Assembly (NCBI GenBank): GCA_046484285.1
Contig: JAWOBP010000088.1
Coordinates: 726-64,725, forward strand
Direction: 5' to 3'
DNA length: 64,000 bases
Source of the DNA: Polyangia bacterium
GTDB taxonomy: Bacteria > Myxococcota_A > Polyangia > JAAYKL01
This document shows positions 14,314-31,258 of the stretch, piece after piece (within the stretch, counting starts at the first letter, position 1; each line of letters opens with the position of its first letter). The notes below the pieces were generated by a model. It was not told the DNA's origin, did not search any database, and saw nothing but the letters and a program-made list of their open reading frames with translations. The position numbers and the translations under genes were made by a program.

Positions 14314-14408
14314 GGGAACGGACGGGTACCTGGTGGGCCCAGCGGACTTCAAATCCGTTTTGGCGCGTTGATAGCGTGCCGGGTGGGTTCGATTCCCACA
14401 CGTTCCCG
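14314..14408 (+). tRNA. selC: tRNA-Sec (selenocysteine, anticodon UCA)
   Basis: 95 nt. The anticodon loop CTTCAAA (TCA at 14349-14351) sits on a 6-bp stem (14341-46 / 14354-59). The long variable arm is a 6-bp stem GGCGCG/CGTGCC with a 7-nt loop (14362-14380). The T arm is GTGGG-TTCGATT-CCCAC. The acceptor is GGGAACG/CGTTCCC with discriminator G, and CCA is not encoded. The anticodon arm closely resembles E. coli selC (GGACTTCAAATCC). Confidence 0.85.
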
Positions 14409-15876: not shown

Positions 15877-16347
15877 TCATCCGCGCAGGGTGGCTACCAG
15901 GCGGCGCGGATCGAGCAGCAGATCGAGCGCGTCGCGCGCGTCGCGGCAGATCGCGTCGGCGGCGAGCAGCGCCTCGCGGGCCGCGCCCTCGTCCTGCAGC
16001 AGCGCCACGCCGAGCGCGGCGGTCTCGAGCATCAGCCGGTCGTTGCGGCCGTTGCCGATCGCGGCCGTCGATCCGGCGCCGAGCCGCTCGACGATCTCGC
16101 GCTTGGCCTCGGACTGAGCGTCGGGCCCCAGCTCGATCAGCTCCAGCGGCAGCCCGGCCAGCTGGCGGCGGGCGTTGCCGAAGGTGTCGGCGGTGGCGAC
16201 CTCGATCTCCACCCGTTCGGCGAGCCGCTCCAGACGCTCGCCGACGCCGGGCAGCAGCAGGCCCCGCCCGGCCAGCGTGCCGTTGTGGTCGAGCACGAGA
16301 TGCGCGATCTCGAGCCGCTTCCACCCGGGTATCTCCAAGCGTATCAA
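15877..16347 (-). CDS. HAD-superfamily hydrolase (small soluble P-type-ATPase-like type)
   Basis: HAD motif I is LVLDHNGTLA and motif IV is GNGRNDRLML. The start is placed at TTG 16347 because higA ends at 16377. The start is uncertain. Confidence 0.6.
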   Translation of the reverse strand: MIRLEIPGWKRLEIAHLVLDHNGTLAGRGLLLPGVGERLERLAERVEIEVATADTFGNARRQLAGLPLELIELGPDAQSEAKREIVERLGAGSTAAIGNGRNDRLMLETAALGVALLQDEGAAREALLAADAICRDARDALDLLLDPRRLVATLRG

Positions 16348-16376
16348 GCTCTCCGCTCCTTCGGCCGTGTCCCGCT

Positions 16377-16700
16377 TCAGGTTCTCGCGGCCGATTCCCC
16401 GGCCGAGTAGGTCTCGATCGATTTCAGTGCCTGTTCTTCCGCCAATCTGGCGCGGTAAAGGTCCCACCGAAGCTGCATGTTGATCCAAAAGTCCTCCGAC
16501 ATTCCGAAGAACTTGGCCAGCCGCAAGGCGGTGCTGGGGGTTATTCCCCTTTTCCCATTCACGATTTCGTTGATTCTCTGGTAAGGAACACTTATCGCGT
16601 CGGCAAGATCGCGCTGGGTGATGTTCATTGGAGACAAGAACTCCTCCAGCAACATCTCACCGGGATGAGTCGGTTCTCGGTTCTTTGGAATTCTGACCAT
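16377..16700 (-). CDS. higA: HigA-family antitoxin (XRE-type HTH)
   Basis: HPGEMLLEEFLSPMNITQRDLADAISVPYQRINEIVNGKRGITPSTALRLAKFFGMSEDFWINMQ is the canonical HigA pattern. The ATG is at 16700. Confidence 0.85.
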   Translation of the reverse strand: MVRIPKNREPTHPGEMLLEEFLSPMNITQRDLADAISVPYQRINEIVNGKRGITPSTALRLAKFFGMSEDFWINMQLRWDLYRARLAEEQALKSIETYSAGESAART

Positions 16701-16717
16701 CGATTGCTCCCTCTTCC

Positions 16718-17014
16718 TCAACGATGATAGTCGACAATTTCTACCTCGTACGCATCGCCCCGGTGCCAGCGAAAGCAAATACGGTATTGATCGTTTACTC
16801 GCACGCTGTGCTGCCCTTTTCGTTCGCCGGACAGCGCCTCGAGGCGATTGCCGGGAGGCACTCTCAAGTCTGCCGGAATCGACGCCGAGTCTATCTGGTC
16901 CAGCTTCCTGACAGCTGTTCTCCTGAGAGCCTCGGGGCATGCCTTTCGCGCCGCTTTGCTTCTTATTCCATTGTACAAGTCCTCCGTACCCTTGGTCTTG
17001 AAGGATTGTATCAT
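16718..17014 (-). CDS. higB: HigB toxin (RelE/ParE superfamily, plasmid-maintenance killer type)
   Basis: MIQSFKTKGTEDLYNG...PPGNRLEALSGERKGQHSVRVNDQYRICFRW...VEIVDYH is the canonical HigB pattern. It lies upstream of higA with a 17-nt gap. Confidence 0.8.
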   Translation of the reverse strand: MIQSFKTKGTEDLYNGIRSKAARKACPEALRRTAVRKLDQIDSASIPADLRVPPGNRLEALSGERKGQHSVRVNDQYRICFRWHRGDAYEVEIVDYHR

Positions 17015-17168
17015 GAATTCACGGTAACACGGAATCCATGTCAAAGCAATCGACGATTTTCGTTTGTCTTCTCGGCTCGATCCCGGAATCGGGAATTGCC
17101 GCGGTGGCGGGGGGCGTGGTAACCAGGCTTTCGCGCCCTGATAAGCATCGTTGCGCGGAGGTGGACCG

Positions 17169-19957: not shown

Positions 19958-20800
19958 ATGACCAGCACCGCGATCACCAGGGTAGGCGAGCTCGATCGCT
20001 ACATGGCCGAGGTCAACCGCTACCCGCTGCTCGACGCCGAGGAGGAGAAGCGCCTGGCTCGACGCTGGCGCGAGAGCGGCGACGTGCAGGCCGCGCACCG
20101 CCTGGTGACGGCGAACCTGCGGTTCGTGGTCAAGATCGCCCACGAGTACCGCGGCTACGGCGCCCAGATGCTGGACATGATCCAGGAGGGCAGCGTGGGG
20201 CTGATGCAGGCGGTCAAGCGCTTCGATCCGGATCGCGGCTACCGGCTGATCTCGTACGCCGTGTACTGGATTCGCTCCTACATCCACGCCTTTTTGATGC
20301 GCACCGTGCGCATGATCAAGGTCGGGACCTCGCGGGCCCACCGCAAGCTGTTCTTCAAGCTGCGGGCGCTCAAGGGCAGGCTGGCCAGCGGCGGAGAGGT
20401 CGAGGATGACGAGCTGCTCGACTCGGTGGCGCGCGAGATGGGGGTCAGCCGCTCCGACGTGGAGGAGATGGACCGTCACCTCGGCGGAAGGGACGCCTCG
20501 CTCGACGCTCCCGTCGCCGAGGGCGGAAGCTCGCTGGGCGAGTTGGTGCCGTCCGAGCAGATCTCGCAGGAGGAACAGCTGGCCGAGCTGGAACACCGGG
20601 CCGATCTCACCGCGCGCCTGGAGACCGCGCTCGACTCGCTCGACGAGCGCGAGCGGGCGATCGTCGAGCAGCGCCACCTGGCCGACGAGCCGCGGCAGCT
20701 CGAGGCGATCGGCCGGGAGCTGGGAGTCACCAAGCAGCGCGTCTCGCAGCTGGAGCGCCGCGCGATGGCCAAGCTCAAGGAGCAGCTGGCCGCGGCATGA
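19958..20800 (+). CDS. rpoH: RNA polymerase sigma-32 (heat-shock) factor
   Basis: Sigma-70 regions 2 to 4 are present, with an RpoH-box-like HRKLFFKLR. The RBS GAAGGAGG lies upstream. Confidence 0.85.
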   Translation: MTSTAITRVGELDRYMAEVNRYPLLDAEEEKRLARRWRESGDVQAAHRLVTANLRFVVKIAHEYRGYGAQMLDMIQEGSVGLMQAVKRFDPDRGYRLISYAVYWIRSYIHAFLMRTVRMIKVGTSRAHRKLFFKLRALKGRLASGGEVEDDELLDSVAREMGVSRSDVEEMDRHLGGRDASLDAPVAEGGSSLGELVPSEQISQEEQLAELEHRADLTARLETALDSLDERERAIVEQRHLADEPRQLEAIGRELGVTKQRVSQLERRAMAKLKEQLAAA

Positions 20801-20847
20801 GCACGAGTCCCTTTCGTCCCCTTTCACCCTGAGCTATTATCCCGACT

Positions 20848-21804
20848 ATGAGAATCAAGGCATCATTGTTGGCGGTTTTTTCAGCGACCTGCGTCGCGCT
20901 GCCGGGTCTGCCGGCCGCGGCTCTCCAGGACGAGAGCGCCGAGGACGAGAGCGCCGAGCCCGAGGAGGAGCCCGCGCCGGAGCAGGAGGCCGAGCCGGAG
21001 CAGGCCGAGCCCGAAGAGGAGCCGGCCCCGGTTCCGGGCGGGGAGGAGCCCGCGCCGACAGAAGAGCCGGCGCCCGATCCGTTCGATCTCGAGGAGCACG
21101 ACGTGGAGTCGGTGGAATACGAGGACGAGGTCGTCCCGGACGAGGCTCCGGAGCCGGAGAAGATCGACGACGGCAGGCCGTTCGCCAAGGGGGACATCGA
21201 GCTGGGCCTGGGCCTGGGAGGCTACGGCGCCGGGGACTACTTCCAGCTCCTGATCGGAGGCGCGTTCTCCTACTACGTTGTCGATCGTTTCGCTCCCGGG
21301 ATCGACATCCAGTACAACATGGTCTTCTCCGACGACTACCGGTACCCGGACAGCTTCACCCTGCTGCCCACGCTCAAGTTCGTGATTCTGCGCAACGCCA
21401 GGTTCGCACCCTACATCGTGGCGGCCGGAGGCTACGAGTTCCAGTGGGGCGGCTCCAAGAACCCGTTCGAGGGCATCCGGGAGGCCGACGCCTGGATCGC
21501 GGGCGGGGGCGCCGGCGCCCACATCGGGATCGGCGATCACTTCGCGCTGACCGTCCAGATCCTGGCGCTCTACTACTGGTACGTGCCCACCAGGATCCGC
21601 GGCTACGACGACGGCGTGTTCTCGAGCGACCAGGCCGCCAGCGACCAGGACGGAAAGTTCGTCGTGATCGACGACGAAGGCCAGCTGGGTTGCGACGCTG
21701 CCAGCGAGGACTGCTACGCGTTCTACGAAGACGAGGATCTCGAGGATCGCGACGGAGAGCTGTTCTTTCCGCTGGTCCGGATCGGTTTCAACGTCTATTT
21801 CTAG
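20848..21804 (+). CDS. secreted protein with acidic Pro/Glu-rich linker and probable outer-membrane beta-barrel C-domain
   Basis: Signal peptide (MRIKASLLAVFSATCVALPGLPAAA), a PE-rich region, alternating hydrophobic beta-strand patterns, and a terminal ...GFNVYF ending in Phe. Confidence 0.6.
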   Translation: MRIKASLLAVFSATCVALPGLPAAALQDESAEDESAEPEEEPAPEQEAEPEQAEPEEEPAPVPGGEEPAPTEEPAPDPFDLEEHDVESVEYEDEVVPDEAPEPEKIDDGRPFAKGDIELGLGLGGYGAGDYFQLLIGGAFSYYVVDRFAPGIDIQYNMVFSDDYRYPDSFTLLPTLKFVILRNARFAPYIVAAGGYEFQWGGSKNPFEGIREADAWIAGGGAGAHIGIGDHFALTVQILALYYWYVPTRIRGYDDGVFSSDQAASDQDGKFVVIDDEGQLGCDAASEDCYAFYEDEDLEDRDGELFFPLVRIGFNVYF

Positions 21805-21965
21805 TGCCTCGTCAACCCGACGATTTCGGGTACGGGGTGAGAGATCATCGGCGAGGCCAAGGAACGACGACGAAGGACTGGCGGTGCCAATTCGAGGAGG
21901 AGTGACGCAGGGATCGTCGATGAGGGCCGGCCCGACCCGGCATTGTGGGGTTGACGAGGCACTAG
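21801..21965. repeat. 18-bp perfect inverted repeat flanking a 129-nt spacer between two convergent stop codons
   Basis: CTAGTGCCTCGTCAACCC (21801-21818) is the exact reverse complement of GGGTTGACGAGGCACTAG (21948-21965). Each arm contains the TAG stop of one of the convergent genes. Confidence 0.9.
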
Positions 21966-23125: not shown

Positions 23126-23286
23126 CGGCTGGCTCCTTGACTTGACTCACTCGCTGCCACGCAAGCGAAAAAACAAAACGACGCTATCTATTTCTCTTCG
23201 GCCGAAAGTTGTCAACCGGGATTCACGGTTGGCGTATGGAGAAGCGGGGCTGCTTGATTCGAACGCCGGGACCGTGCATTTTCTGG

Positions 23287-24549
23287 ATGTCGATGCCAGC
23301 TGTGAACCCCAGGACTTTTTTTCGCTTCGCCGCGGAGCACCACGCACTGCTCACCGAGCTGTACTACAGGCGTGAGGGGCTGCCGGATGCGGAGCTGCTC
23401 GAGCTGATAAGGCGTCACAGCGACCTGCAGTCGCCGAGCGCGTCCTATCTCCGCGATCGTCTCTTGGAATTGGGAATCCTGGAGCCCGCTCCCGAGGCTA
23501 CGGCGCAGCTGGAGATGACGCGGCCCGTCGCGGCGCTGGTCGGGTATCTGTTGCGTGAGTATCGACTGACCAGCGTGGAGGTGATTCAGTCGTACTTCCA
23601 GGCCATCGAGTCGCTCGGGTCGGAGCTGTCCAGTGCGGTGGCCCGGGGAAACAGCGAGATCCTGGTTCGTGTGAACGCGGAGCTCGAGGATCACGTGGAG
23701 CGCATGCGCCATGACTCCCGCAACAATCGCGAACGGGTGATCGCGGACGTGATGCGGGTCAAGACCAACCGGGAGCGCCTCAACCCGCGCCAGCGTTACG
23801 AGCTGGTGAACAGGCTGTGGACTCGGTACATCGTCCCGCTCCGCGACGTGATCGACACGCAGAAGGTCATGGACGCGGCGCTGGACAGGCTGGAAGGAAT
23901 CTACCGCGACGCTCACGAGAGCTTCGCGGGCGACGGCGTCGTGCAGCGCGTGATCCGCGGCGGAGAAGCGCGGCTGCGGCGCCTGCGGCGCGACGTGCTG
24001 GGCGATTTTCAAGAGACGGTTCGCGAGGTCACCCCTCTCTACGAGGAGCTTCGACACGAGACGGCGGTTGCGCGGGGAGCGGCTCGGGCGCTGGAGCGGG
24101 TATCGAAAGAGGGGTTGGCCGAGCTGGGGCTTTCGCGGATCATGGGAGTCTGCAACTGGCAGCAGCGCGGTCTGTTCGGCGACGGCGCGCTGGAGTCGTA
24201 TCTGGCCGAGTTGCGCGGTTACGACCCGCTGCCTCCCGATCCTCTCTCTCCCGCCCGGAAGGATGGCGGATCGCCTCGCGTCGATCCGGTGGAATTCTCC
24301 GAGAGAGCACGCGCGGCCGTGCCGATCGAGGACGCTCTCGAGTGGCTGCTCGGGAGCTATCCCGAAGCGGGATCGGTCGAGGTGCTGCGCCTCTACGGGC
24401 GATTGCACTCGGGCCGTTTCGGAGCGACCTCCTTCGCAGCAAAGAGCAGAGAATACCCTGTGGCCGACCTGCTGCTGGTCGCTTGCCCAATGGCGATCGT
24501 TCCCGATCGCGATCCGGATCGCGAGCAGACGGGTGGAGGTCCGCGATGA
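23287..24549 (+). CDS. kleisin-like subunit candidate (JetA/MksF position) of an SMC-Toprim operon
   Basis: About 420 aa, helical and Arg/Glu-rich, with no motif I can name. The call rests on its position as the first gene of a four-gene overlapping operon, and its size is close to JetA/MksF. The start could be ATG 23287 or 23293. Confidence 0.45.
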   Translation: MSMPAVNPRTFFRFAAEHHALLTELYYRREGLPDAELLELIRRHSDLQSPSASYLRDRLLELGILEPAPEATAQLEMTRPVAALVGYLLREYRLTSVEVIQSYFQAIESLGSELSSAVARGNSEILVRVNAELEDHVERMRHDSRNNRERVIADVMRVKTNRERLNPRQRYELVNRLWTRYIVPLRDVIDTQKVMDAALDRLEGIYRDAHESFAGDGVVQRVIRGGEARLRRLRRDVLGDFQETVREVTPLYEELRHETAVARGAARALERVSKEGLAELGLSRIMGVCNWQQRGLFGDGALESYLAELRGYDPLPPDPLSPARKDGGSPRVDPVEFSERARAAVPIEDALEWLLGSYPEAGSVEVLRLYGRLHSGRFGATSFAAKSREYPVADLLLVACPMAIVPDRDPDREQTGGGPR

Positions 24550-25130
24550 CCGATGAGCTCGATGGACCGATCGATCTGCCCCGGTTGGCCGAGGTTTTCG
24601 ATGCCCTGCGCAAGGGACGGCACATCTGCATGACCGGCGATGCAGGTTTGTACTCCGTGCTCAGGGACCATTCGGAGGAGTTTCGAGCACTGTTCGTGCA
24701 ACTCGGCTTCGAGCTGGTACATCATCCACGCGATTTTTTCTATTTTTCGAACCGCAAGAACTTCACCGAGCTGTCGGCGCGGATGGCTGTCTTCGTGTTC
24801 ATCCTGGTCGAGCACCTCGCCGACCGCGGCGAGGCCATCGAAGAGACGTTGATGACCCGTCGTTTCAGATTCGCGGAGCTGCCGCACATGACAAAAGAGA
24901 GGTACAGACGGCTGATGCGCGAGGCCGGCGTGACCGAGGACGGTGATATCGAGCAGACAGTGGTCAACATGGAACGGTTCGGGTTCGCCGAACGCCGTGC
25001 GGACGACAGCTTCGTCTTTCGGCCGCCCGCCTACCGTTTTCTCGATCTCTGTTACGAGATGGCCGGCGGAATTCCGGACCGGGGGGACGTTCGGCGAGGA
25101 GATGCCGGCGGGGAGAACCAGCAAATATGA
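24546..25130 (+). CDS. small winged-helix-like subunit candidate (JetB/MksE position)
   Basis: 194 aa, with ATGA overlaps at both ends. Segments such as LAEVFDALRKGRHI...LYSVLRDHSEEFRALFVQLGFELVHHPRDFFYF and ...MERFGFAER resemble DUF4194/MksE-type tandem WH proteins as I recall them. This is not verified. Confidence 0.5.
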   Translation: MTDELDGPIDLPRLAEVFDALRKGRHICMTGDAGLYSVLRDHSEEFRALFVQLGFELVHHPRDFFYFSNRKNFTELSARMAVFVFILVEHLADRGEAIEETLMTRRFRFAELPHMTKERYRRLMREAGVTEDGDIEQTVVNMERFGFAERRADDSFVFRPPAYRFLDLCYEMAGGIPDRGDVRRGDAGGENQQI

Positions 25131-27898
25131 GCGCGGCGGACGAGAGGCGCGTCGGGCCGACCAAGATCCTGCTGCTCAACTGCGGGAAGTTCGATTTCGC
25201 GCAGGTGGACATCGACGCACCCTTGCATCTGGTGGGCGCCAACAACGTCGGCAAGACGTCTCTGATCGCCCTTTTGCAGCTGCTCTACATCGATGATCAG
25301 CGAAAGATGCACTTCGCTCGCGATTTCGCCGAGACAAGACGCTACTACTTTCCCGACGTTTACAGTTACGTGCTGTTCGAGTGCCTGACGCCCACGGGAT
25401 TCAAGGTCGTGGGGGCACGAGGTCTGGGGCCGGTCAGGCAATACGAGTTCGAGAGGTTCTGCTACCTGGGGCGTCTCGATGTGGAAGACTACGTGGACGA
25501 CGAGCATCGTATTCGTTCTCATGAGGAGATTCTTCCCGCCCTGGCCGATCGCGACTTCGCGCGCCTCCAGCCCCGCCACCTTCGCGCGGCGCTGACCGGC
25601 GTGGGGGACAACCGGGGAGTGGATCTGCGGCTGGTGCCGGCGCGCCACGGGGGGACCTATTCGCGTTTCCGCAAGGTGTTCAACAACATTCTACGACTGT
25701 CGCACCTCAAGCAGGATGAGCTGAAAAGGCTGGTCCTGGACGTTTTTGATGCCGAGTTCCAGCAACGCAGCATAGACCTGGCGAAGACATACGCCCACGG
25801 GTTCGAGCGAGTGCGGAAGGACTCCCAAGAGCTGCGGGATCTGAAGCTGCTGGAAGAAGACATAAAGTCGTTGCTGGAGCACATCGAAAAACGGGAAGAT
25901 TGCCGGCGCGTTCTCCCGGCCCTTTGGGAGGCGCTGGGCCGGGCGCTGACCGGGGCGAGATCGGAGTTGGATCGGGAAAAACGCGATCTCGAAGGAGAGC
26001 TGGACCAAAGCGAGCAGCGAAAGCGGTCGCTCGACGAGCGCATCGAGGCGTTGAGACAAAGGAGGGACGACTCGGCGAACCGTATGGCGGGGCTCGAGTA
26101 CGAGCTGCGTCGTCTGGATTCGGAGCGAGAGCGCTTTGCGGATTTCGTCGTCGAATGGGAGGAGCAGAGGAAGCGCAACCTGAGCGAATCGATAGATTCT
26201 CTGGCTTTCAAGCTCGGACAGTCGAAACGGGAGCCGCAGTCGCGGGTCGAGGCGCGGCTGTACAAGCTGGAAAACGAAATCGAGTTGCGCGAGCGACGGT
26301 TGGAAGGGCTGGCTAGCAGTGCCGTGCATTGGCTGCGAGAGCGATTCGAGGACGAGGAGCTCGAAGACGTCTTTCGCCTGCTGAATCCGGGCCTGCTGGA
26401 CTCGAAGCTGGAGGGAGAGGACGCCGGGGGGCGAGTGTACGACCCAGAGCGAGCCACAGGCTCTTTGCGCGAGCTGCTGTCGTGGCGCGACGGTCGGATC
26501 GTGCGCGGGATGGGTGTGGAGCTCGACCTGGATGAAATTGATGCACCCGGCCTGTCCCGCCATGCGAATCCCGGGGTGATCCGGGACGAGCTGGAAGATC
26601 TCCTGGGGCAGTTGGAATCGCAGCGCGAGGCGTTGGCGGCGGCGCGAGACGCAGAACGGCTGACGAAAGAGAAGCGTGAGCTGGAGGTGGAGCAGGAGGC
26701 GTTGATCAGGGAGCTGGGCGACTGGGGGAAGCTGCGAGAGCTGGAGTCGCGGGAGGACGAGTGGCGCAGCGAGCTGGAGTCTTTGCAGGCTCGTCGAGAG
26801 GCGGCCGAGCGGGAAGAGAAGGAGTGCGAGAAGGAGCGCGAGCGAATCGTGCGCGGCATCGAGAAAACGAAGCGCGGATGCGACGATGTCGAGAGGCAAC
26901 GCCTCGCCCTCGAGGACGAGACCCGAGATTTGCGCCGTCCGCCCGCGGAATGGCCTCTCGTGGAGGTGGAAGGTCTCCCGGAGGATTTCGAGGAGCTGGT
27001 CTCGCGCTATCGGCGCGTGTATCGAGACGAGCAAATACGACAGCAGAGAGTCTCGGAGATTCTCGATCGCATCGAGAGACAGACCTACGGCGTCTACACG
27101 GCACAGGACGAGTCAGCGACAGTGCGAGCGCTGAAGGAGCAGTTGGAGAGCATTCCGGAAAAGGAGCGGGCGGTTCAGGAGCTGTGGACGAGCATCGCGG
27201 TGGGGATCAAGAAATCGCTGAGCAGTATCGCGCGTGACATCGATATTCTAAAAGGGCAGATCCAGGCGCTCAATCGGCGCATCGGCGGGGTCACCGTATC
27301 GAACTTGACCTCTCTGCGACTGCTGGTCCACGAGCGTCCCGACTGGGTCGAGCACATTCGCAAGATCAGTCTGGACGAGGACATGCCGCTGTTCGCCGAC
27401 CCGCGGGCGGTTCGCAGCTCTTTGGAGGACCTGGGGCGCCTGCTGTCGGACCATCCTCGCATCGATCTGGAAGATCTTTTCGATCTGAGATTCGAGGTAG
27501 AAACGCCGGATGGGAAGCTCCGCACGCACGCCCATCTCGACGCGATCGAGTCCAACGGCACCACCGTCACGATCAAGGTGCTGGTCAACCTGGTGCTCTT
27601 GAGCGGATTGTTGGAAGGGGCGAACGTGCACATACCGTTCTACCTGGACGAGTGCTCCAGCCTGGACAACGACAACCTGGCCGCGATTGTCGAGGCGGCT
27701 CGGGAAATGGGGTTCGTCGCGGTTCTCGCCAGTCCGGACGCGATGGACGCCGCGGAGCGCTTGTATTTCATCGAGGAGGGGTCCAATGGTCGCGTCGTGC
27801 TAGACCCCAGAGGGGCGCTCGTCCGCGTCGTAAGAAAAGAGGAGGATCCGTCGGATGAGCAGCGGCATTCATCGAGCCCTGAGCAGGCTGATCGCTGA
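25127..27898 (+). CDS. SMC-like ATPase (JetC/MksB position): Walker A head, about 500 aa coiled coil, Walker B head
   Basis: Walker A GANNVGKTS lies near the N-terminus. A long Glu/Arg/Leu heptad-rich middle follows (roughly residues 230-720). The C-terminal Walker B with D-loop is HIPFYLDECSSLD. Confidence 0.8.
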   Translation: MSAADERRVGPTKILLLNCGKFDFAQVDIDAPLHLVGANNVGKTSLIALLQLLYIDDQRKMHFARDFAETRRYYFPDVYSYVLFECLTPTGFKVVGARGLGPVRQYEFERFCYLGRLDVEDYVDDEHRIRSHEEILPALADRDFARLQPRHLRAALTGVGDNRGVDLRLVPARHGGTYSRFRKVFNNILRLSHLKQDELKRLVLDVFDAEFQQRSIDLAKTYAHGFERVRKDSQELRDLKLLEEDIKSLLEHIEKREDCRRVLPALWEALGRALTGARSELDREKRDLEGELDQSEQRKRSLDERIEALRQRRDDSANRMAGLEYELRRLDSERERFADFVVEWEEQRKRNLSESIDSLAFKLGQSKREPQSRVEARLYKLENEIELRERRLEGLASSAVHWLRERFEDEELEDVFRLLNPGLLDSKLEGEDAGGRVYDPERATGSLRELLSWRDGRIVRGMGVELDLDEIDAPGLSRHANPGVIRDELEDLLGQLESQREALAAARDAERLTKEKRELEVEQEALIRELGDWGKLRELESREDEWRSELESLQARREAAEREEKECEKERERIVRGIEKTKRGCDDVERQRLALEDETRDLRRPPAEWPLVEVEGLPEDFEELVSRYRRVYRDEQIRQQRVSEILDRIERQTYGVYTAQDESATVRALKEQLESIPEKERAVQELWTSIAVGIKKSLSSIARDIDILKGQIQALNRRIGGVTVSNLTSLRLLVHERPDWVEHIRKISLDEDMPLFADPRAVRSSLEDLGRLLSDHPRIDLEDLFDLRFEVETPDGKLRTHAHLDAIESNGTTVTIKVLVNLVLLSGLLEGANVHIPFYLDECSSLDNDNLAAIVEAAREMGFVAVLASPDAMDAAERLYFIEEGSNGRVVLDPRGALVRVVRKEEDPSDEQRHSSSPEQADR

Positions 27899-28715
27899 TC
27901 GCTCTCTGCCGTGCTCGACGCTCAGCGGCCGAACGGAACGAGGCATTCGTCCGCTCATCGACACCGGCGCGGTGGCTCCCCGCAGGCGAGGCAGGGGCAT
28001 GGTGCTGGAAGTCCGGGATATCGCCGCCGTCTCCGCTTTTTACGAAAAGCTGTTTCCGCATGGGAATGTCGCGCCGAGCTCCGAGGACGGCACCTCCCCG
28101 GCTCCGCGGGGCGAGGCGGTCGCGTTGTTTCGAGACGCCAAACGGGCCCGCTCGGCCGCCGCAGAGCCGGTTCTGCTTCGCGCCGCGGGAGAAGCGAGGG
28201 CCGTTCGCGGAGAGGCGAGCATCGACTTGTGCGAGCTGACGCGGGCCGCGGGCGCCGCCTGTCTGCTGGTGGACGACCGGCCGGGCTGGTGCCTGCAAGG
28301 GACGGTCGCGGTGATCGAGAACCTCGAGGTCTTTTTGAGCTTCGAAAAGCTGCGGACCCGGGCGTCGACGGCGCTCTACTCCGCCGGGAGGCTTTCGCGC
28401 CGCGTGCGGAGCTGGCTGGCGTCGGACGAGATGAGGAGCTGCGACTACCTTCACTGCGGAGACTACGATCCGGTTGGTCTCGACGAGTACCTGCGATTGA
28501 GAGACGAGCTCGGCTCGCGGGTGGAGCTTCATCTTCCCCCTTGCATCGAGGCGCTTTTCCGCCGCTACGGAAAGCGAGAGCTGTTGCGCGATTCGCCCGC
28601 GATCCTGGCCCGTCTGCGGCGGGTCGATCTTCCTTCGATCCGCCGGGTGGTGAGTCTCATGGACGAGACGGGCTGCGGCCTGGAGCAGGAAGCGCTGCTG
28701 CTGGACCGGCCGTGA
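27855..28715 (+). CDS. Toprim-domain protein (JetD/MksG position), compact 286 aa
   Basis: The Toprim acidic residues are VAVIENLEVF (Glu codon at 28317) and HCGDYDPVGL (DxD at 28461-28469), with the spacing expected of a Toprim fold. The gene overlaps the 3' end of the SMC-like gene by 44 nt. Confidence 0.7.
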   Translation: MSSGIHRALSRLIADRSLPCSTLSGRTERGIRPLIDTGAVAPRRRGRGMVLEVRDIAAVSAFYEKLFPHGNVAPSSEDGTSPAPRGEAVALFRDAKRARSAAAEPVLLRAAGEARAVRGEASIDLCELTRAAGAACLLVDDRPGWCLQGTVAVIENLEVFLSFEKLRTRASTALYSAGRLSRRVRSWLASDEMRSCDYLHCGDYDPVGLDEYLRLRDELGSRVELHLPPCIEALFRRYGKRELLRDSPAILARLRRVDLPSIRRVVSLMDETGCGLEQEALLLDRP

Positions 28716-28750
28716 GATCGGACTTCAGTGGCGCCTCCCGGGCTCTCCGG

Positions 28751-28831
28751 CCAATCGGATCATTGCATCAGTGGGTGGGACTGCTCCAGCGCTGATATGG
28801 GGTTTGCTCTGCCGGAGCTGATTCCGATTGG
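28751..28831. terminator. long imperfect hairpin between the convergent Toprim gene and helicase gene
   Basis: CCAATCGGA (28751-28759) pairs with TCCGATTGG (28823-28831) and extends to 12 bp with one bulge. The loop is 63 nt. Function is unknown. Confidence 0.2.
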
Positions 28832-28838
28832 CAGCGTA

Positions 28839-31244
28839 TCACCGGCGAGATCGACGTCCGCTGTCACGGCTGAGACGACCCTCGGCGCCGCAAGCGTCGG
28901 TGAGGTCGTCGTGTTCCCAAAAGCCTTGCAGCAGCTCTTTCAGCTGCTCGGGGCCTTTCACCGGCTCTCGGTGGGACCAGTGCTCGGGCAGCAGGCCGGC
29001 GAAGTCGGGGCGCCCGAAGCGCTCGTCGATCAGCAACAGCGCCCCGCGGTCGGTGGCCGATCGGATCACCCGGCCCGCGGCCTGCATGACGCGTCCGATT
29101 CCGGGGTAGGCGTAGGCGAAGGCGAAACCGTCTCCCTCGCTTCTGGCAAAGTGGGCTCGGATCCGCTCGCGCTCCGGGCCGACCGCGGGCAGGCCCACGC
29201 TGACCACCGCGGCTCCGGAGAGCCGATCGCCGACCAGGTCGATCCCCTCTCCGAAGACGCCGCCCATCACGGCGAAGCCCAGCAGCGGCCGCTCGTCCCC
29301 GAGCTCGGTGAGGAAGTCGTGGCGCGCCCGCTCGTCCATCTCGCGGTCTTGAGCGACGCAGCGCACCTCCGGATGGCTGCTGCGAAAGCCGTCGAACAGC
29401 ATCCGCAGGTAGTCGTGGGACGGCAAAAAGGTCAGGTAGTTTCCCGGCCTCGCCGCGATCAGCGCGCGGATCAGATCCGCGACTTCGATCAACGAGCGCC
29501 GGCGTGCGCGGTAGCTGACCGGCGTGCGATCCGCGACTGCGATGCAGAGGTTTCGCGCGGGAAAAGGAGAGGGGATCGAAAGCAGCTCGGCCCCTTCGCC
29601 GGCTCCGAGCGTGCGCGCGTGATAGGCGAGCGGAGTCAACGTCCCGGAGAAGAAGATCGCCGGGCGGCGCCCCAGCGCGGCGTCGATCTCGGCGGATGGG
29701 TCCAGGCACAGCAGGCGCAAAGCGCCGTTCCTTCCCCGGCTGGTCGCAAGCGCCGCGTAGCGTCCCTCCGTCGCGGCCCGGGCGCGATTGGAAAACGCCA
29801 TCGCGCGAAACCTGAGCTCGCCGATCGCGGCACAGCCACCCGCCGTGGGATGCTCCCACAGCGCCGATCTGGCCGCGACGCAGAATCGATCCGCGGCGTC
29901 CAGCAGCTCTGCCGGGACCGCGTCCAGCTCGCGGGTCTTCTTCTCGCTCGCCTCTTTGCAACAACGCGCCAGCGCGCCGCCGAGCGCGTCCAGGCAGCGT
30001 AGCAGCTCGCGGCCGAGACCGTCGGATTCGGATCGAGCGGCCCGAATCCGGGCGGTGTCGAGCTCGACCGAGAGCATCTCCCGAGCGCGGTCGACCAGGT
30101 TGTGCGCCTCGTCGACCAGCAGCGCCCTTGCGGCGGCGCCGGGCGAGCGCATCACCTTGGGGCTGACCGAGGGATCGAAGGCGTAGTTGACGTCGCCGAC
30201 CACAAGGTCCATCCACGGCACCGCCTCCAGTGAGAGCAGAAACGGGCAGACTCGGTGCCGAGCCGCCACGCGCTCGACAGGTGCGGGACCAGAATCCGCC
30301 GCGGAGAACAGCTCGCCCAGCGCGCCGCGCAGGCGGTCGAAGTGGCCGGCCGCCAACGGGCAATCGCCCGCGTCGCAGGCGCTGCCCGGGTGCGGGCAGA
30401 TTCGGAAGCGCGCGACCAGCTGGAGCCACTTGAGGCGCGCGCCGGATTCGCGCAGGGCCGATATCGTTTCGGCCACCGGGGCGCGACCCGTGTTGCGCGC
30501 CGTGAGGTACAGGATCTGCTCTGAGCTCGATTTGGGAAGCGCGCTCAGAGCCCCGTGGAGCGCCGCAGCGGTTTTACCGATCCCGGTCGGGGCCTCGCTC
30601 AGCAGGCGGCCGGATCTCAGCACGGCGCGACGCGCGGCCGCGGAAAGATCGAGCTGACCGGGGCGCGGGCGGGGGTGCACAAAGCCCAGGTTGCGAAGCG
30701 AGCGGTCGCGCTCGCGGCGCCAGTCGGTGACTGTGTGCAGCCAGTCGAGGTAGGTCGACACGGCGCGCGTCAACAGATCGTCGAGCTGCTCGCGGGAGAT
30801 CGTCCGCTCGAAGGTGCGGACCTCGAGCGTCTCCAAGTGCAGGTAGGTCAGGCGCGTCTCGACGCGAGGCAGGTCTTCCTCTGCGGCCAGCAGAGCGGCG
30901 TACAGCAGGAGCTGCGCCCAGTGCTGCGGGTGATCGTCCCTCCCGATCAGCACCAGCGGCCTGAGCACGGTCTTGATCTCGTGCACGACCGCCGTGGAGC
31001 CGCGCCGGTCCACGCCGTCCGCGCGTCCGCCGACCAGCAGCCGGATACCGCCTCGCTCCCAGGCGTCCTCGAGGCGCACCTCGCTCTCCACGCCGTCGGG
31101 CAAAGAGCGTTGCAGCAGGCGATGGCCGTGGCCGCCCTCCGCGTACGTCGGCGCGAGCCCGCCGCCGCTGCTCAGGTCGCCGCGCGCCAGCGAGAAGCGC
31201 GCCAGCTCGCGAACGGAGACGGAGATCAGGCCGTTGGAAGGCAT
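28839..31244 (-). CDS. fusion of an N-terminal PD-(D/E)XK (Cas4/AddB-like) nuclease domain with an XPD/DinG-family Fe-S helicase
   Basis: The N-terminal part reads SVRELARFSL.RGDL...GHGHRL...VHEIKT (nuclease-like D/ExK). The helicase has Walker A APTGIGKT, a four-Cys cluster (CPHPGSACDAGDC...HRVCP) and the DEAH box LLVDEAHNL. The C-terminal part is RecA2-like (VMGGVFGEGIDL...AAGRVIRS). Confidence 0.75.
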   Translation of the reverse strand: MPSNGLISVSVRELARFSLARGDLSSGGGLAPTYAEGGHGHRLLQRSLPDGVESEVRLEDAWERGGIRLLVGGRADGVDRRGSTAVVHEIKTVLRPLVLIGRDDHPQHWAQLLLYAALLAAEEDLPRVETRLTYLHLETLEVRTFERTISREQLDDLLTRAVSTYLDWLHTVTDWRRERDRSLRNLGFVHPRPRPGQLDLSAAARRAVLRSGRLLSEAPTGIGKTAAALHGALSALPKSSSEQILYLTARNTGRAPVAETISALRESGARLKWLQLVARFRICPHPGSACDAGDCPLAAGHFDRLRGALGELFSAADSGPAPVERVAARHRVCPFLLSLEAVPWMDLVVGDVNYAFDPSVSPKVMRSPGAAARALLVDEAHNLVDRAREMLSVELDTARIRAARSESDGLGRELLRCLDALGGALARCCKEASEKKTRELDAVPAELLDAADRFCVAARSALWEHPTAGGCAAIGELRFRAMAFSNRARAATEGRYAALATSRGRNGALRLLCLDPSAEIDAALGRRPAIFFSGTLTPLAYHARTLGAGEGAELLSIPSPFPARNLCIAVADRTPVSYRARRRSLIEVADLIRALIAARPGNYLTFLPSHDYLRMLFDGFRSSHPEVRCVAQDREMDERARHDFLTELGDERPLLGFAVMGGVFGEGIDLVGDRLSGAAVVSVGLPAVGPERERIRAHFARSEGDGFAFAYAYPGIGRVMQAAGRVIRSATDRGALLLIDERFGRPDFAGLLPEHWSHREPVKGPEQLKELLQGFWEHDDLTDACGAEGRLSRDSGRRSRR

Positions 31245-31258
31245 CTTCTATTTTCGCG

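Follow-up and report, generated by a model that had tools for sequence, protein, structure and literature searches.

Wadjet (JetABCD), of which types I to III are known, corresponds to MksBEFG of Corynebacterium glutamicum and EptABCD of Mycobacterium smegmatis. For Wadjet types I and II, loop extrusion followed by cleavage of small circular DNA has been shown (as covered in reviews). The MksBEF of Pseudomonas aeruginosa is described in the literature as a three-gene chromosome organiser without JetD, and reviews propose that MksBEF and MukBEF derived from Wadjet by loss of JetD; no intermediate is described in them. Here, we analysed a 64,000-nt stretch of DNA from a Polyangia bacterium (contig JAWOBP010000088.1, positions 726 to 64,725; hereafter, the window), which carries a compact four-gene operon encoding a kleisin-like protein, an MksE-type protein, an ATPase of the structural maintenance of chromosomes (SMC) type, and a short Toprim protein. 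We infer that this operon probably functions as a Wadjet-like anti-plasmid SMC-nuclease system that falls outside types I–III. This assignment is carried by the homologies and predicted folds of the ATPase and Toprim proteins, the invariant catalytic residues, the strict co-occurrence of the four genes, and the horizontal acquisition of the operon. Positions in the window are as follows.

23287-28715, forward strand: operon of four genes (kleisin-like, 420 aa; MksE/KITE, 194 aa; SMC-type ATPase, 923 aa; Toprim protein, 286 aa)
23287..24549, forward strand: gene 1, kleisin-like subunit, 420 aa (418 aa with the start at 23293)
24546..25130, forward strand: gene 2, MksE, KITE-type subunit with tandem winged helices, 194 aa
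25127..27898, forward strand: gene 3, SMC-type ATP-binding cassette (ABC) ATPase, 923 aa
27855..28715, forward strand: gene 4, short JetD/MksG-like Toprim nuclease candidate, 286 aa

The four co-directional genes and three overlapping junctions noticed in an earlier reading of the DNA, made from the letters alone (the sequence-only reading), were all present in the open reading frames (ORFs) and the sequence. The junctions of genes 1 and 2 (24546-24549) and of genes 2 and 3 (25127-25130) are ATGA overlaps, and gene 4 overlaps gene 3 (stop codon at 27896-27898) by 44 nt. The ATG of gene 4 at 27855 has a Shine-Dalgarno sequence (AGGAGGA) 8 nt upstream. In the public gene call, gene 4 has a later start and 238 aa; its homologues (278-302 aa) aligned from residue 1 and covered 99-100% of the 286-aa form. 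Because these homologues align along the whole of that form, the 286-aa start is the correct one. Two start candidates were found for gene 1 (23287 and 23293), and the public call corresponds to the 418-aa form. The whole system is small (approximately 5.4 kb), and a promoter and terminator scan of the forward strand of the operon returned nothing exceeding background.

On the evidence of profile matches, genes 1–3 belong to the MksBEF family proper and not to Wadjet types I–III, which refines the assignment given above. Matches to the Pfam MksBEF families PF28010, PF21980, and PF28007 are recorded in the public collection for genes 1, 2, and 3 of the window, respectively (precomputed records, with E-values of 1e-5 or better for PF28010 and PF28007). 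The three proteins aligned end to end with the P. aeruginosa MksBEF models and in the same order (420, 194, and 923 aa vs. 412, 232, and 926 model positions). Alignments to the NCBIfam equivalog models NF040857, NF040858, and NF040859 were full-length, with scores far under the cut-offs (93 vs. 750, 98 vs. 400, and 242 vs. 1900 bits, respectively). Thus, genes 1–3 represent a distant branch of MksBEF. The names of these models need care: the primary literature uses mksFEBG, with MksB as the ATPase, whereas NCBIfam and Pfam reverse the two names, so that NF040857 and PF28010 call the first gene (approximately 412 aa) MksB and NF040859 and PF28007 call the ATPase (approximately 926 aa) MksF. Automatic annotation of such operons is therefore likely to be misleading.

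Gene 1 aligned through residues 6-400 with positions 2-404 of the 412 positions of NF040857 (E = 1.4e-26), and it was always the first gene in the conserved operon. From this full-length match, the PF28010 match, and its operon position, gene 1 is considered kleisin-like, the putative MksF of the primary literature. It had no match to JetA among the PADLOC Wadjet models, which were compared as profile matches of the four proteins, and single-sequence and profile searches of the PDB returned no informative relative for it, with weak winged-helix matches to DtxR (E = 0.08-0.5). Gene 2 is clearly placed in the MksE family by its profile matches, which covered positions 1-162 of the 163 positions of PF21980 (E = 3.3e-33, 115.8 bits, cut-off 27) and extended to NF040858 (E = 7e-28). 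A family profile of gene 2 retrieved MukE chains from the PDB (E = 2.8e-7) and no JetB; MukE was the only solved structure matched by sequence, and the match to PADLOC JetB1 reached only E = 0.017.

The SMC-type ATPase encoded by gene 3 scored higher on its MksBEF model than on JetC, with 242 bits on NF040859 (residues 7-887 against profile positions 4-910 of 926, E = 1e-71) vs. 35 bits on PADLOC JetC1 (E = 1.4e-9, limited to a coiled-coil stretch at residues 488-720). The motifs and the coil of approximately 500 aa that had been noticed earlier are present: Walker A (GANNVGKTS) lies at residues 37-45, Walker B (IPFYLDECSSLD) lies at residues 836-847, and the helices run from approximately residue 218 to 720. 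Invariant residues in the family alignment include G42 and K43 (Walker A), S809, G811, and T812, and D841 and E842 (Walker B). The ATPase signature motif, previously called not obvious, most probably corresponds to S809-x-G811-T812 (IESNGTT), which is invariant and precedes Walker B by 32 residues. In the AlphaFold2 model (mean predicted local distance difference test score, pLDDT, of 79), a split head (residues 1-217 and 721-905) is joined to two arms (approximately 218-419 and 482-720) and a small hinge (approximately 420-480). Foldseek ranked MukB first (E = 1.5e-20), followed by Rad50, type II JetC (1e-13), and type I JetC (1e-12), and Smc5/6 and condensin were also among the top folds. 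The predicted protein thus has the split ABC head, antiparallel coiled coil, and hinge of the SMC superfamily, and the SMC fold, on which the sequence-only reading had made its interpretation depend, was recovered. Sequence searches of the PDB with gene 3, single or profile, gave coiled-coil or chance matches only. With approximately 200 residues each, the modelled arms would measure roughly 30 nm, like those of E. coli JetC (295 Å). Although MukB is the best fold match of gene 3, MukBEF differs from the operon in several respects: MukB is larger (approximately 1490 aa, with arms of approximately 58 nm), and the system has no nuclease subunit and is chromosomal and essential. No similarity to MukF was detected in the proteins of the operon.

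The product of gene 4 reached the Pfam JetD_C domain just above its cut-off (E = 4.5e-5, 23.3 bits, cut-off 22) and DUF7281 below it (23.2 bits, cut-off 27), in both cases through residues 150-282 only. The match to PADLOC JetD1 (E = 2.1e-6) was restricted to the last third of that model (positions 269-406 of 409). Residues 1-149 had no Pfam or PADLOC match, including to the N-terminal models of JetD, and sequence searches of the PDB (single and profile) found no informative relative of gene 4, with only chance or coiled-coil matches. In the AlphaFold2 model (pLDDT 89), a winged helix (residues 1-66) is followed by a conserved linker of low model confidence (72-100), a beta subdomain (103-140), and a Toprim domain (149-286). 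The two best Foldseek matches in the PDB were MksG of C. glutamicum (8b7f, E = 1.2e-4) and JetD of P. aeruginosa (7til, E = 5e-3), in agreement with the Toprim fold that had been predicted from the motifs; the N-terminal part resembles the winged helices of ArsR, MarR, and AspA. In place of the CAP-with-arm (DUF3322-type) region of JetD, gene 4 has the 66-residue winged helix, the linker, and the small beta subdomain.

The acidic Toprim residues were found where the first reading had placed them, in IENLE (E155) and GDYDP (D203 and D205), 48 residues apart. Both family alignments showed E155, N156, D203, D205, E277, and E279 to be invariant; for H200, Y204, and Q278 this held in one alignment, with conservation of 90% or more in the second; and Y175 was nearly invariant. 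In MksG, a protein described as a topoisomerase VI-A homologue, mutation showed that E236, Y258, and D279 are important for cleavage, and E349 and E351 have been proposed as alternative nucleophiles (PMC10123090). The spacing of E155, Y175, D203, D205, E277, and E279 in gene 4 mirrors that of these MksG residues, which suggests that they are equivalent. Within the linker, residues 85-100 (window 28107-28154) had pLDDT values below 50, yet R93 and K96 were invariant; this segment is a candidate docking or DNA-contact motif. One gene 4 homologue, P0035 (447 aa, from a metagenome-assembled genome of Deferrisomatales), combined 97% query cover with a NUDIX Pfam match and may represent either a gene fusion or two calls merged into one.

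Taken together, models and folds upheld the order and domain logic for which the sequence-only reading had drawn a parallel to JetA-JetB-JetC-JetD and MksF-E-B-G. Kleisin, KITE protein, SMC-like ATPase, and Toprim protein follow one another in the operon as they do in Wadjet, and the JetD_C Toprim domain is common to JetD and gene 4. The differences from Wadjet lie in JetA, which is unmatched by gene 1; in JetB and JetC, whose matches are marginal, genes 2 and 3 being nearer to MukE, MukB, and the MksBEF models; and in JetD, which has approximately 400 aa vs. 286 aa in gene 4 and has N-terminal models that gene 4 does not match. No known type yielded near full-length matches to all four proteins (none for JetA; marginal or partial for JetB1, JetC1, and JetD1), a result that leaves standing the two options raised at the outset, namely, a Wadjet subtype distant from the known ones or an SMC-Toprim system not yet described. 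A divergent member of established type I, II, or III that current tools could call would share the jetABCD/mksFEBG gene order and could explain both the weak PADLOC matches to JetC1, JetD1, and JetB1 and the name that NCBI gives to one gene 4 homologue (Wadjet anti-phage system protein JetD domain-containing protein). We consider this very unlikely because JetA is unmatched, JetC1 matches only the coiled coil, JetD1 matches only in its last third, and the ATPase scores far higher on the MksBEF model. In addition, all four proteins are below the type I model lengths, as the first reading had suspected, RefSeq calls all four genes hypothetical on the three annotated plasmid records inspected, and no paper was found on a fourth type or on DUF7281.

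A literature search likewise found nothing on MksBEF with a Toprim partner, with many subscription papers outside its reach. In the papers found, the arrangement of an MksBEF-like motor with a minimal JetD is undescribed and in that sense new; what was already known is DUF7281, catalogued as a domain of unknown function. MksBEF as defined in the literature has three genes and no nuclease and organises the chromosome, whereas the operon in the window has a conserved Toprim fourth gene and is absent from close relatives of its host.

The four-gene arrangement was strongly conserved. A family profile of gene 4 collected 751 clusters (50% identity) at E ≤ 0.001 and 525 at E ≤ 1e-10, nearly all of them of 280-300 aa, and relatives of gene 4 were encoded at 112 places in species genomes. 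Among loci found from the nuclease side with sufficient upstream DNA, 58 of 60 kept the order 1-2-3-4, mostly with overlapping junctions; thus, the order is not due to chance. From the ATPase side, the 73 most similar loci that extended far enough downstream included 69 with an ORF of the gene 4 family after the ATPase gene. The four exceptions were three-gene operons in Desulfopila, Alkalilimnicola (two), and one gammaproteobacterium. These three-gene Mks operons (L225, L231 (Alkalilimnicola), L226, and L203) had approximately 32-37% identity in gene 3 and no downstream ORF of the gene 4 family, and in L231 a response-regulator-like gene stood in place of gene 4. They are candidates for nuclease loss within or beside the clade. 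Two further loci departed from the pattern. In L051 (7008-8814), a fragment of gene 1 directly adjoined gene 4 without genes 2 and 3, which looks like a deletion derivative, and in L071 (7349-8293), a gene 4 homologue had no Mks genes within 7 kb upstream.

The hosts belong to at least 10 phyla and include Kiritimatiellia, Victivallales, Verrucomicrobiota, Elusimicrobiota, Desulfobulbia, other Thermodesulfobacteriota, Myxococcota, Planctomycetota, Rhodothermia (Salinivenus and Salinibacter), Bacteroidota, and several proteobacterial orders. Plasmid copies were found in Salinibacter ruber, Polaromonas naphthalenivorans, Halioglobus, and Neptuniibacter and on a megaplasmid of P. amygdali. The RefSeq records of the Salinibacter, Polaromonas, and Neptuniibacter plasmids give each of the four genes the label hypothetical, and the same applies to the P. 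amygdali counterparts; the Halioglobus plasmid record is unannotated. The divergent fourth genes of Neptuniibacter and P. amygdali were homologous to gene 4 along their full length (hhalign, E = 9e-25 and 7e-18, respectively), and a protein search with the P. amygdali megaplasmid gene retrieved three close relatives only. Wadjet systems share this accessory, horizontally moved, and sometimes plasmid-borne character. With 525 clusters at the stricter threshold, many phyla, and the RefSeq label hypothetical, the family likely represents a gap in defence-system annotation.

Within the window, an insertion between the core genes metK and murA holds the operon.

23219..31253, no strand assigned: island (insertion) between metK and murA, from comparison with L086; its cargo is the operon and a convergent helicase gene

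The host belongs to the myxobacteria, and its MurA is 96% identical to that of the uncultured Myxococcales genome L086, the closest relative. In L086, murA and metK are approximately 105 nt apart, with flanks of 88-91% DNA identity to the window, and the two genes are also adjacent in L087, L088, L089, and L091. DNA homology between the window and L086 stops at 23218 and restarts at 31254, and murA and metK are adjacent in the relatives; therefore, the window carries a recent insertion of approximately 8,035 bp. The location between metK and murA given by the first reading was thus confirmed, as an 8-kb insertion that also includes the neighbouring helicase gene. No terminal repeats were found at the island ends and no integrase domain in the two cargo units, and the only tRNA gene of the window is approximately 9 kb off; a single weak 15-nt repeat near both ends is probably due to chance.

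The G+C content of the operon was 63.5% vs. a window mean of 66.5% (standard deviation 2.0, 5.4-kb windows), which places it within the lowest 6% of such windows, and G+C at third codon positions (GC3) was 74-79% in the operon vs. 85-93% in neighbouring genes. The compositional dip described earlier is therefore real, whereas its size (58-62% vs. 70-72%) had been overstated. The nearest relatives of the operon have approximately 60% identity and belong to another phylum (Kiritimatiellia, Victivallales). The insertion, the lower GC3, the nearest relatives in another phylum, and the plasmid copies show that the operon was horizontally acquired and is accessory.

These observations bear on the possibility that the operon encodes a chromosome-organising MksBEF condensin whose Toprim partner acts like a topoisomerase or resolvase on chromosomal DNA, analogous to the partnership of MukB and topoisomerase IV, instead of serving as a defence nuclease. 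Such a role would suit the full-length matches of genes 1–3 to the P. aeruginosa-type models, the retrieval of MukE and not JetB by gene 2, the closeness of the gene 3 fold to MukB, the chromosome-organising role that reviews give to MksBEF in P. aeruginosa, and the description of MksG as a topoisomerase VI-A homologue. It is nevertheless unlikely, given that the operon is an insertion missing from the closest relative and four others, that it is patchy across phyla, carried on plasmids, and without a conserved genome position, and that mobile or defence-type genes are frequent among its neighbours. The nearest neighbours of related operons included Fic/SoFic genes (9 of 117), ResIII helicases (7), ZorD-like SNF2 genes (4), AbiEi (3), and McrBC (1), counts that are only suggestive because they were made without a background control and include closely related loci.

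Another target or trigger was also considered, namely, phage DNA, conjugative entry, or abortive infection in which the Toprim protein would degrade host DNA or RNA in the manner of PARIS or Gabija. The pairing of an ABC ATPase with a Toprim effector, as in genes 3 and 4, recurs in Gabija (GajAB), PARIS (AriAB), and the OLD family; PADLOC gave weak matches to GajA and AriA at the P-loop region of gene 3; the N-terminal half of the nuclease is unlike JetD; and anti-phage genes are common neighbours. On the other side, the kleisin and KITE proteins point to a ring-forming loop extruder and not to an assembly of the Gabija or PARIS type, and the nuclease folds nearest to MksG and JetD and not to OLD or AriB. 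Neither a kleisin nor a KITE protein occurs in the Gabija, PARIS, and OLD systems, which also lack long SMC arms with a hinge, and their Toprims are not the closest folds to gene 4. A different target or trigger for an SMC-nuclease system of this kind is thus quite unlikely. A Lamassu or Gabija identity was rejected because kleisin and KITE proteins are present and the matches are weak and confined to the P-loop or the coiled coil.

Under the anti-plasmid assignment, the operon would work by analogy with Wadjet. The sensor would be a compact MksBEF-type complex of kleisin (gene 1), KITE dimer (gene 2), and ATPase (gene 3), and the effector would be a minimal JetD/MksG-type Toprim nuclease (gene 4). 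The ATPase complex may load on DNA and extrude loops; on small circular DNA, extrusion would be completed and would then stall, and a Toprim dimer would dock and cut via the conserved E / DxD / ExE metal site. Plasmids would be destroyed and the chromosome spared. From the described systems, the operon would be expected to extrude loops, to select circular DNA, to have nuclease activity, and to confer an anti-plasmid phenotype. In type I Wadjet, the N-terminal domain of JetD links it to JetABC (bioRxiv 10.1101/2025.03.10.642339). Because gene 4 does not match the N-terminal models of JetD, it would have to couple to the motor differently, and it might dock there through its winged helix or through the conserved linker with R93 and K96.

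Several points weigh against the anti-plasmid assignment. By profile and predicted fold, genes 1–3 appear nearer to the chromosome organisers MksBEF and MukBEF than to JetABC. The homology of gene 4 to JetD is weak by sequence (23 bits) and draws mainly on predicted fold and context, and since gene 4 does not match the domain that links JetD to its motor, the coupling of nuclease and motor described above is a proposal. For the whole family, function has been read from sequences and predicted folds, and the defence-type neighbours add only the suggestive counts given above. Finally, plasmid carriage would be odd for a system directed against plasmids. Wadjet systems are, however, also known on plasmids.

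A more specific form of the anti-plasmid assignment is that the operon represents a fourth Wadjet type, in which an MksBEF/MukBEF-like motor is paired with a minimal JetD lacking the CAP arm, and that it is the surviving nuclease-bearing form of the lineage whose nuclease loss gave rise to three-gene chromosomal MksBEF (perhaps also MukBEF). We regard the chances for and against this form as evenly balanced. The family is an MksBEF-type motor that still has a conserved minimal JetD-like nuclease, and it looks like the relative predicted by the loss scenario. If this form is true, the three-gene operons at the edge of the clade (Alkalilimnicola and others) would represent nuclease loss in progress, and a nuclease that docks differently could reveal a second way to couple loop extrusion with DNA cleavage. 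Because relatives that have lost the nuclease sit near this nuclease-bearing family, phylogeny and biochemistry can put the loss hypothesis to the test. A system this small, with a nuclease of 286 aa, would also be a convenient model for an SMC motor licensing a nuclease.

The second gene of the island lies downstream of the operon and is convergent with it.

28839..31244, reverse strand: helicase gene, 801 aa, PD-(D/E)XK nuclease domain and DinG/XPD-type helicase; starts 14 nt past the murA stop

Its product matched Helicase_C_2 (E = 4.5e-31), HBB, DEAD_2, and PDDEXK_1 in Pfam and typeIV_DinG in PADLOC (E = 7.4e-94). The gene has a host-like composition (G+C 70.5%, GC3 85%), unlike the operon, and no homologue was found within 8 kb of the operon by tBLASTn in loci L001-L083. 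A role as a fifth component was therefore rejected (no homologue near the operon in 83 loci). Since it is unlinked to the operon elsewhere and host-like in composition, the helicase gene is treated as separate cargo, and it may be an independent defence or repair gene.

Beside the island, a second variable spot was observed at window 19958-21955, where synteny with L086 ends at the 3′ end of metK. A sigma-70-family gene (19958-20800) and an ORF encoding an acidic protein of 318 aa (20848-21804) lie there and have no counterpart in the 8.7 kb of L086 beyond metK. Farther from the island, G+C content fell to 53-58% at window 16200-17100, against the window mean of 66.5% and below that of the operon itself. 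A selenocysteine tRNA gene was identified on the forward strand at window 14314-14408 by both ARAGORN and Rfam (RF01852, 70.5 bits).

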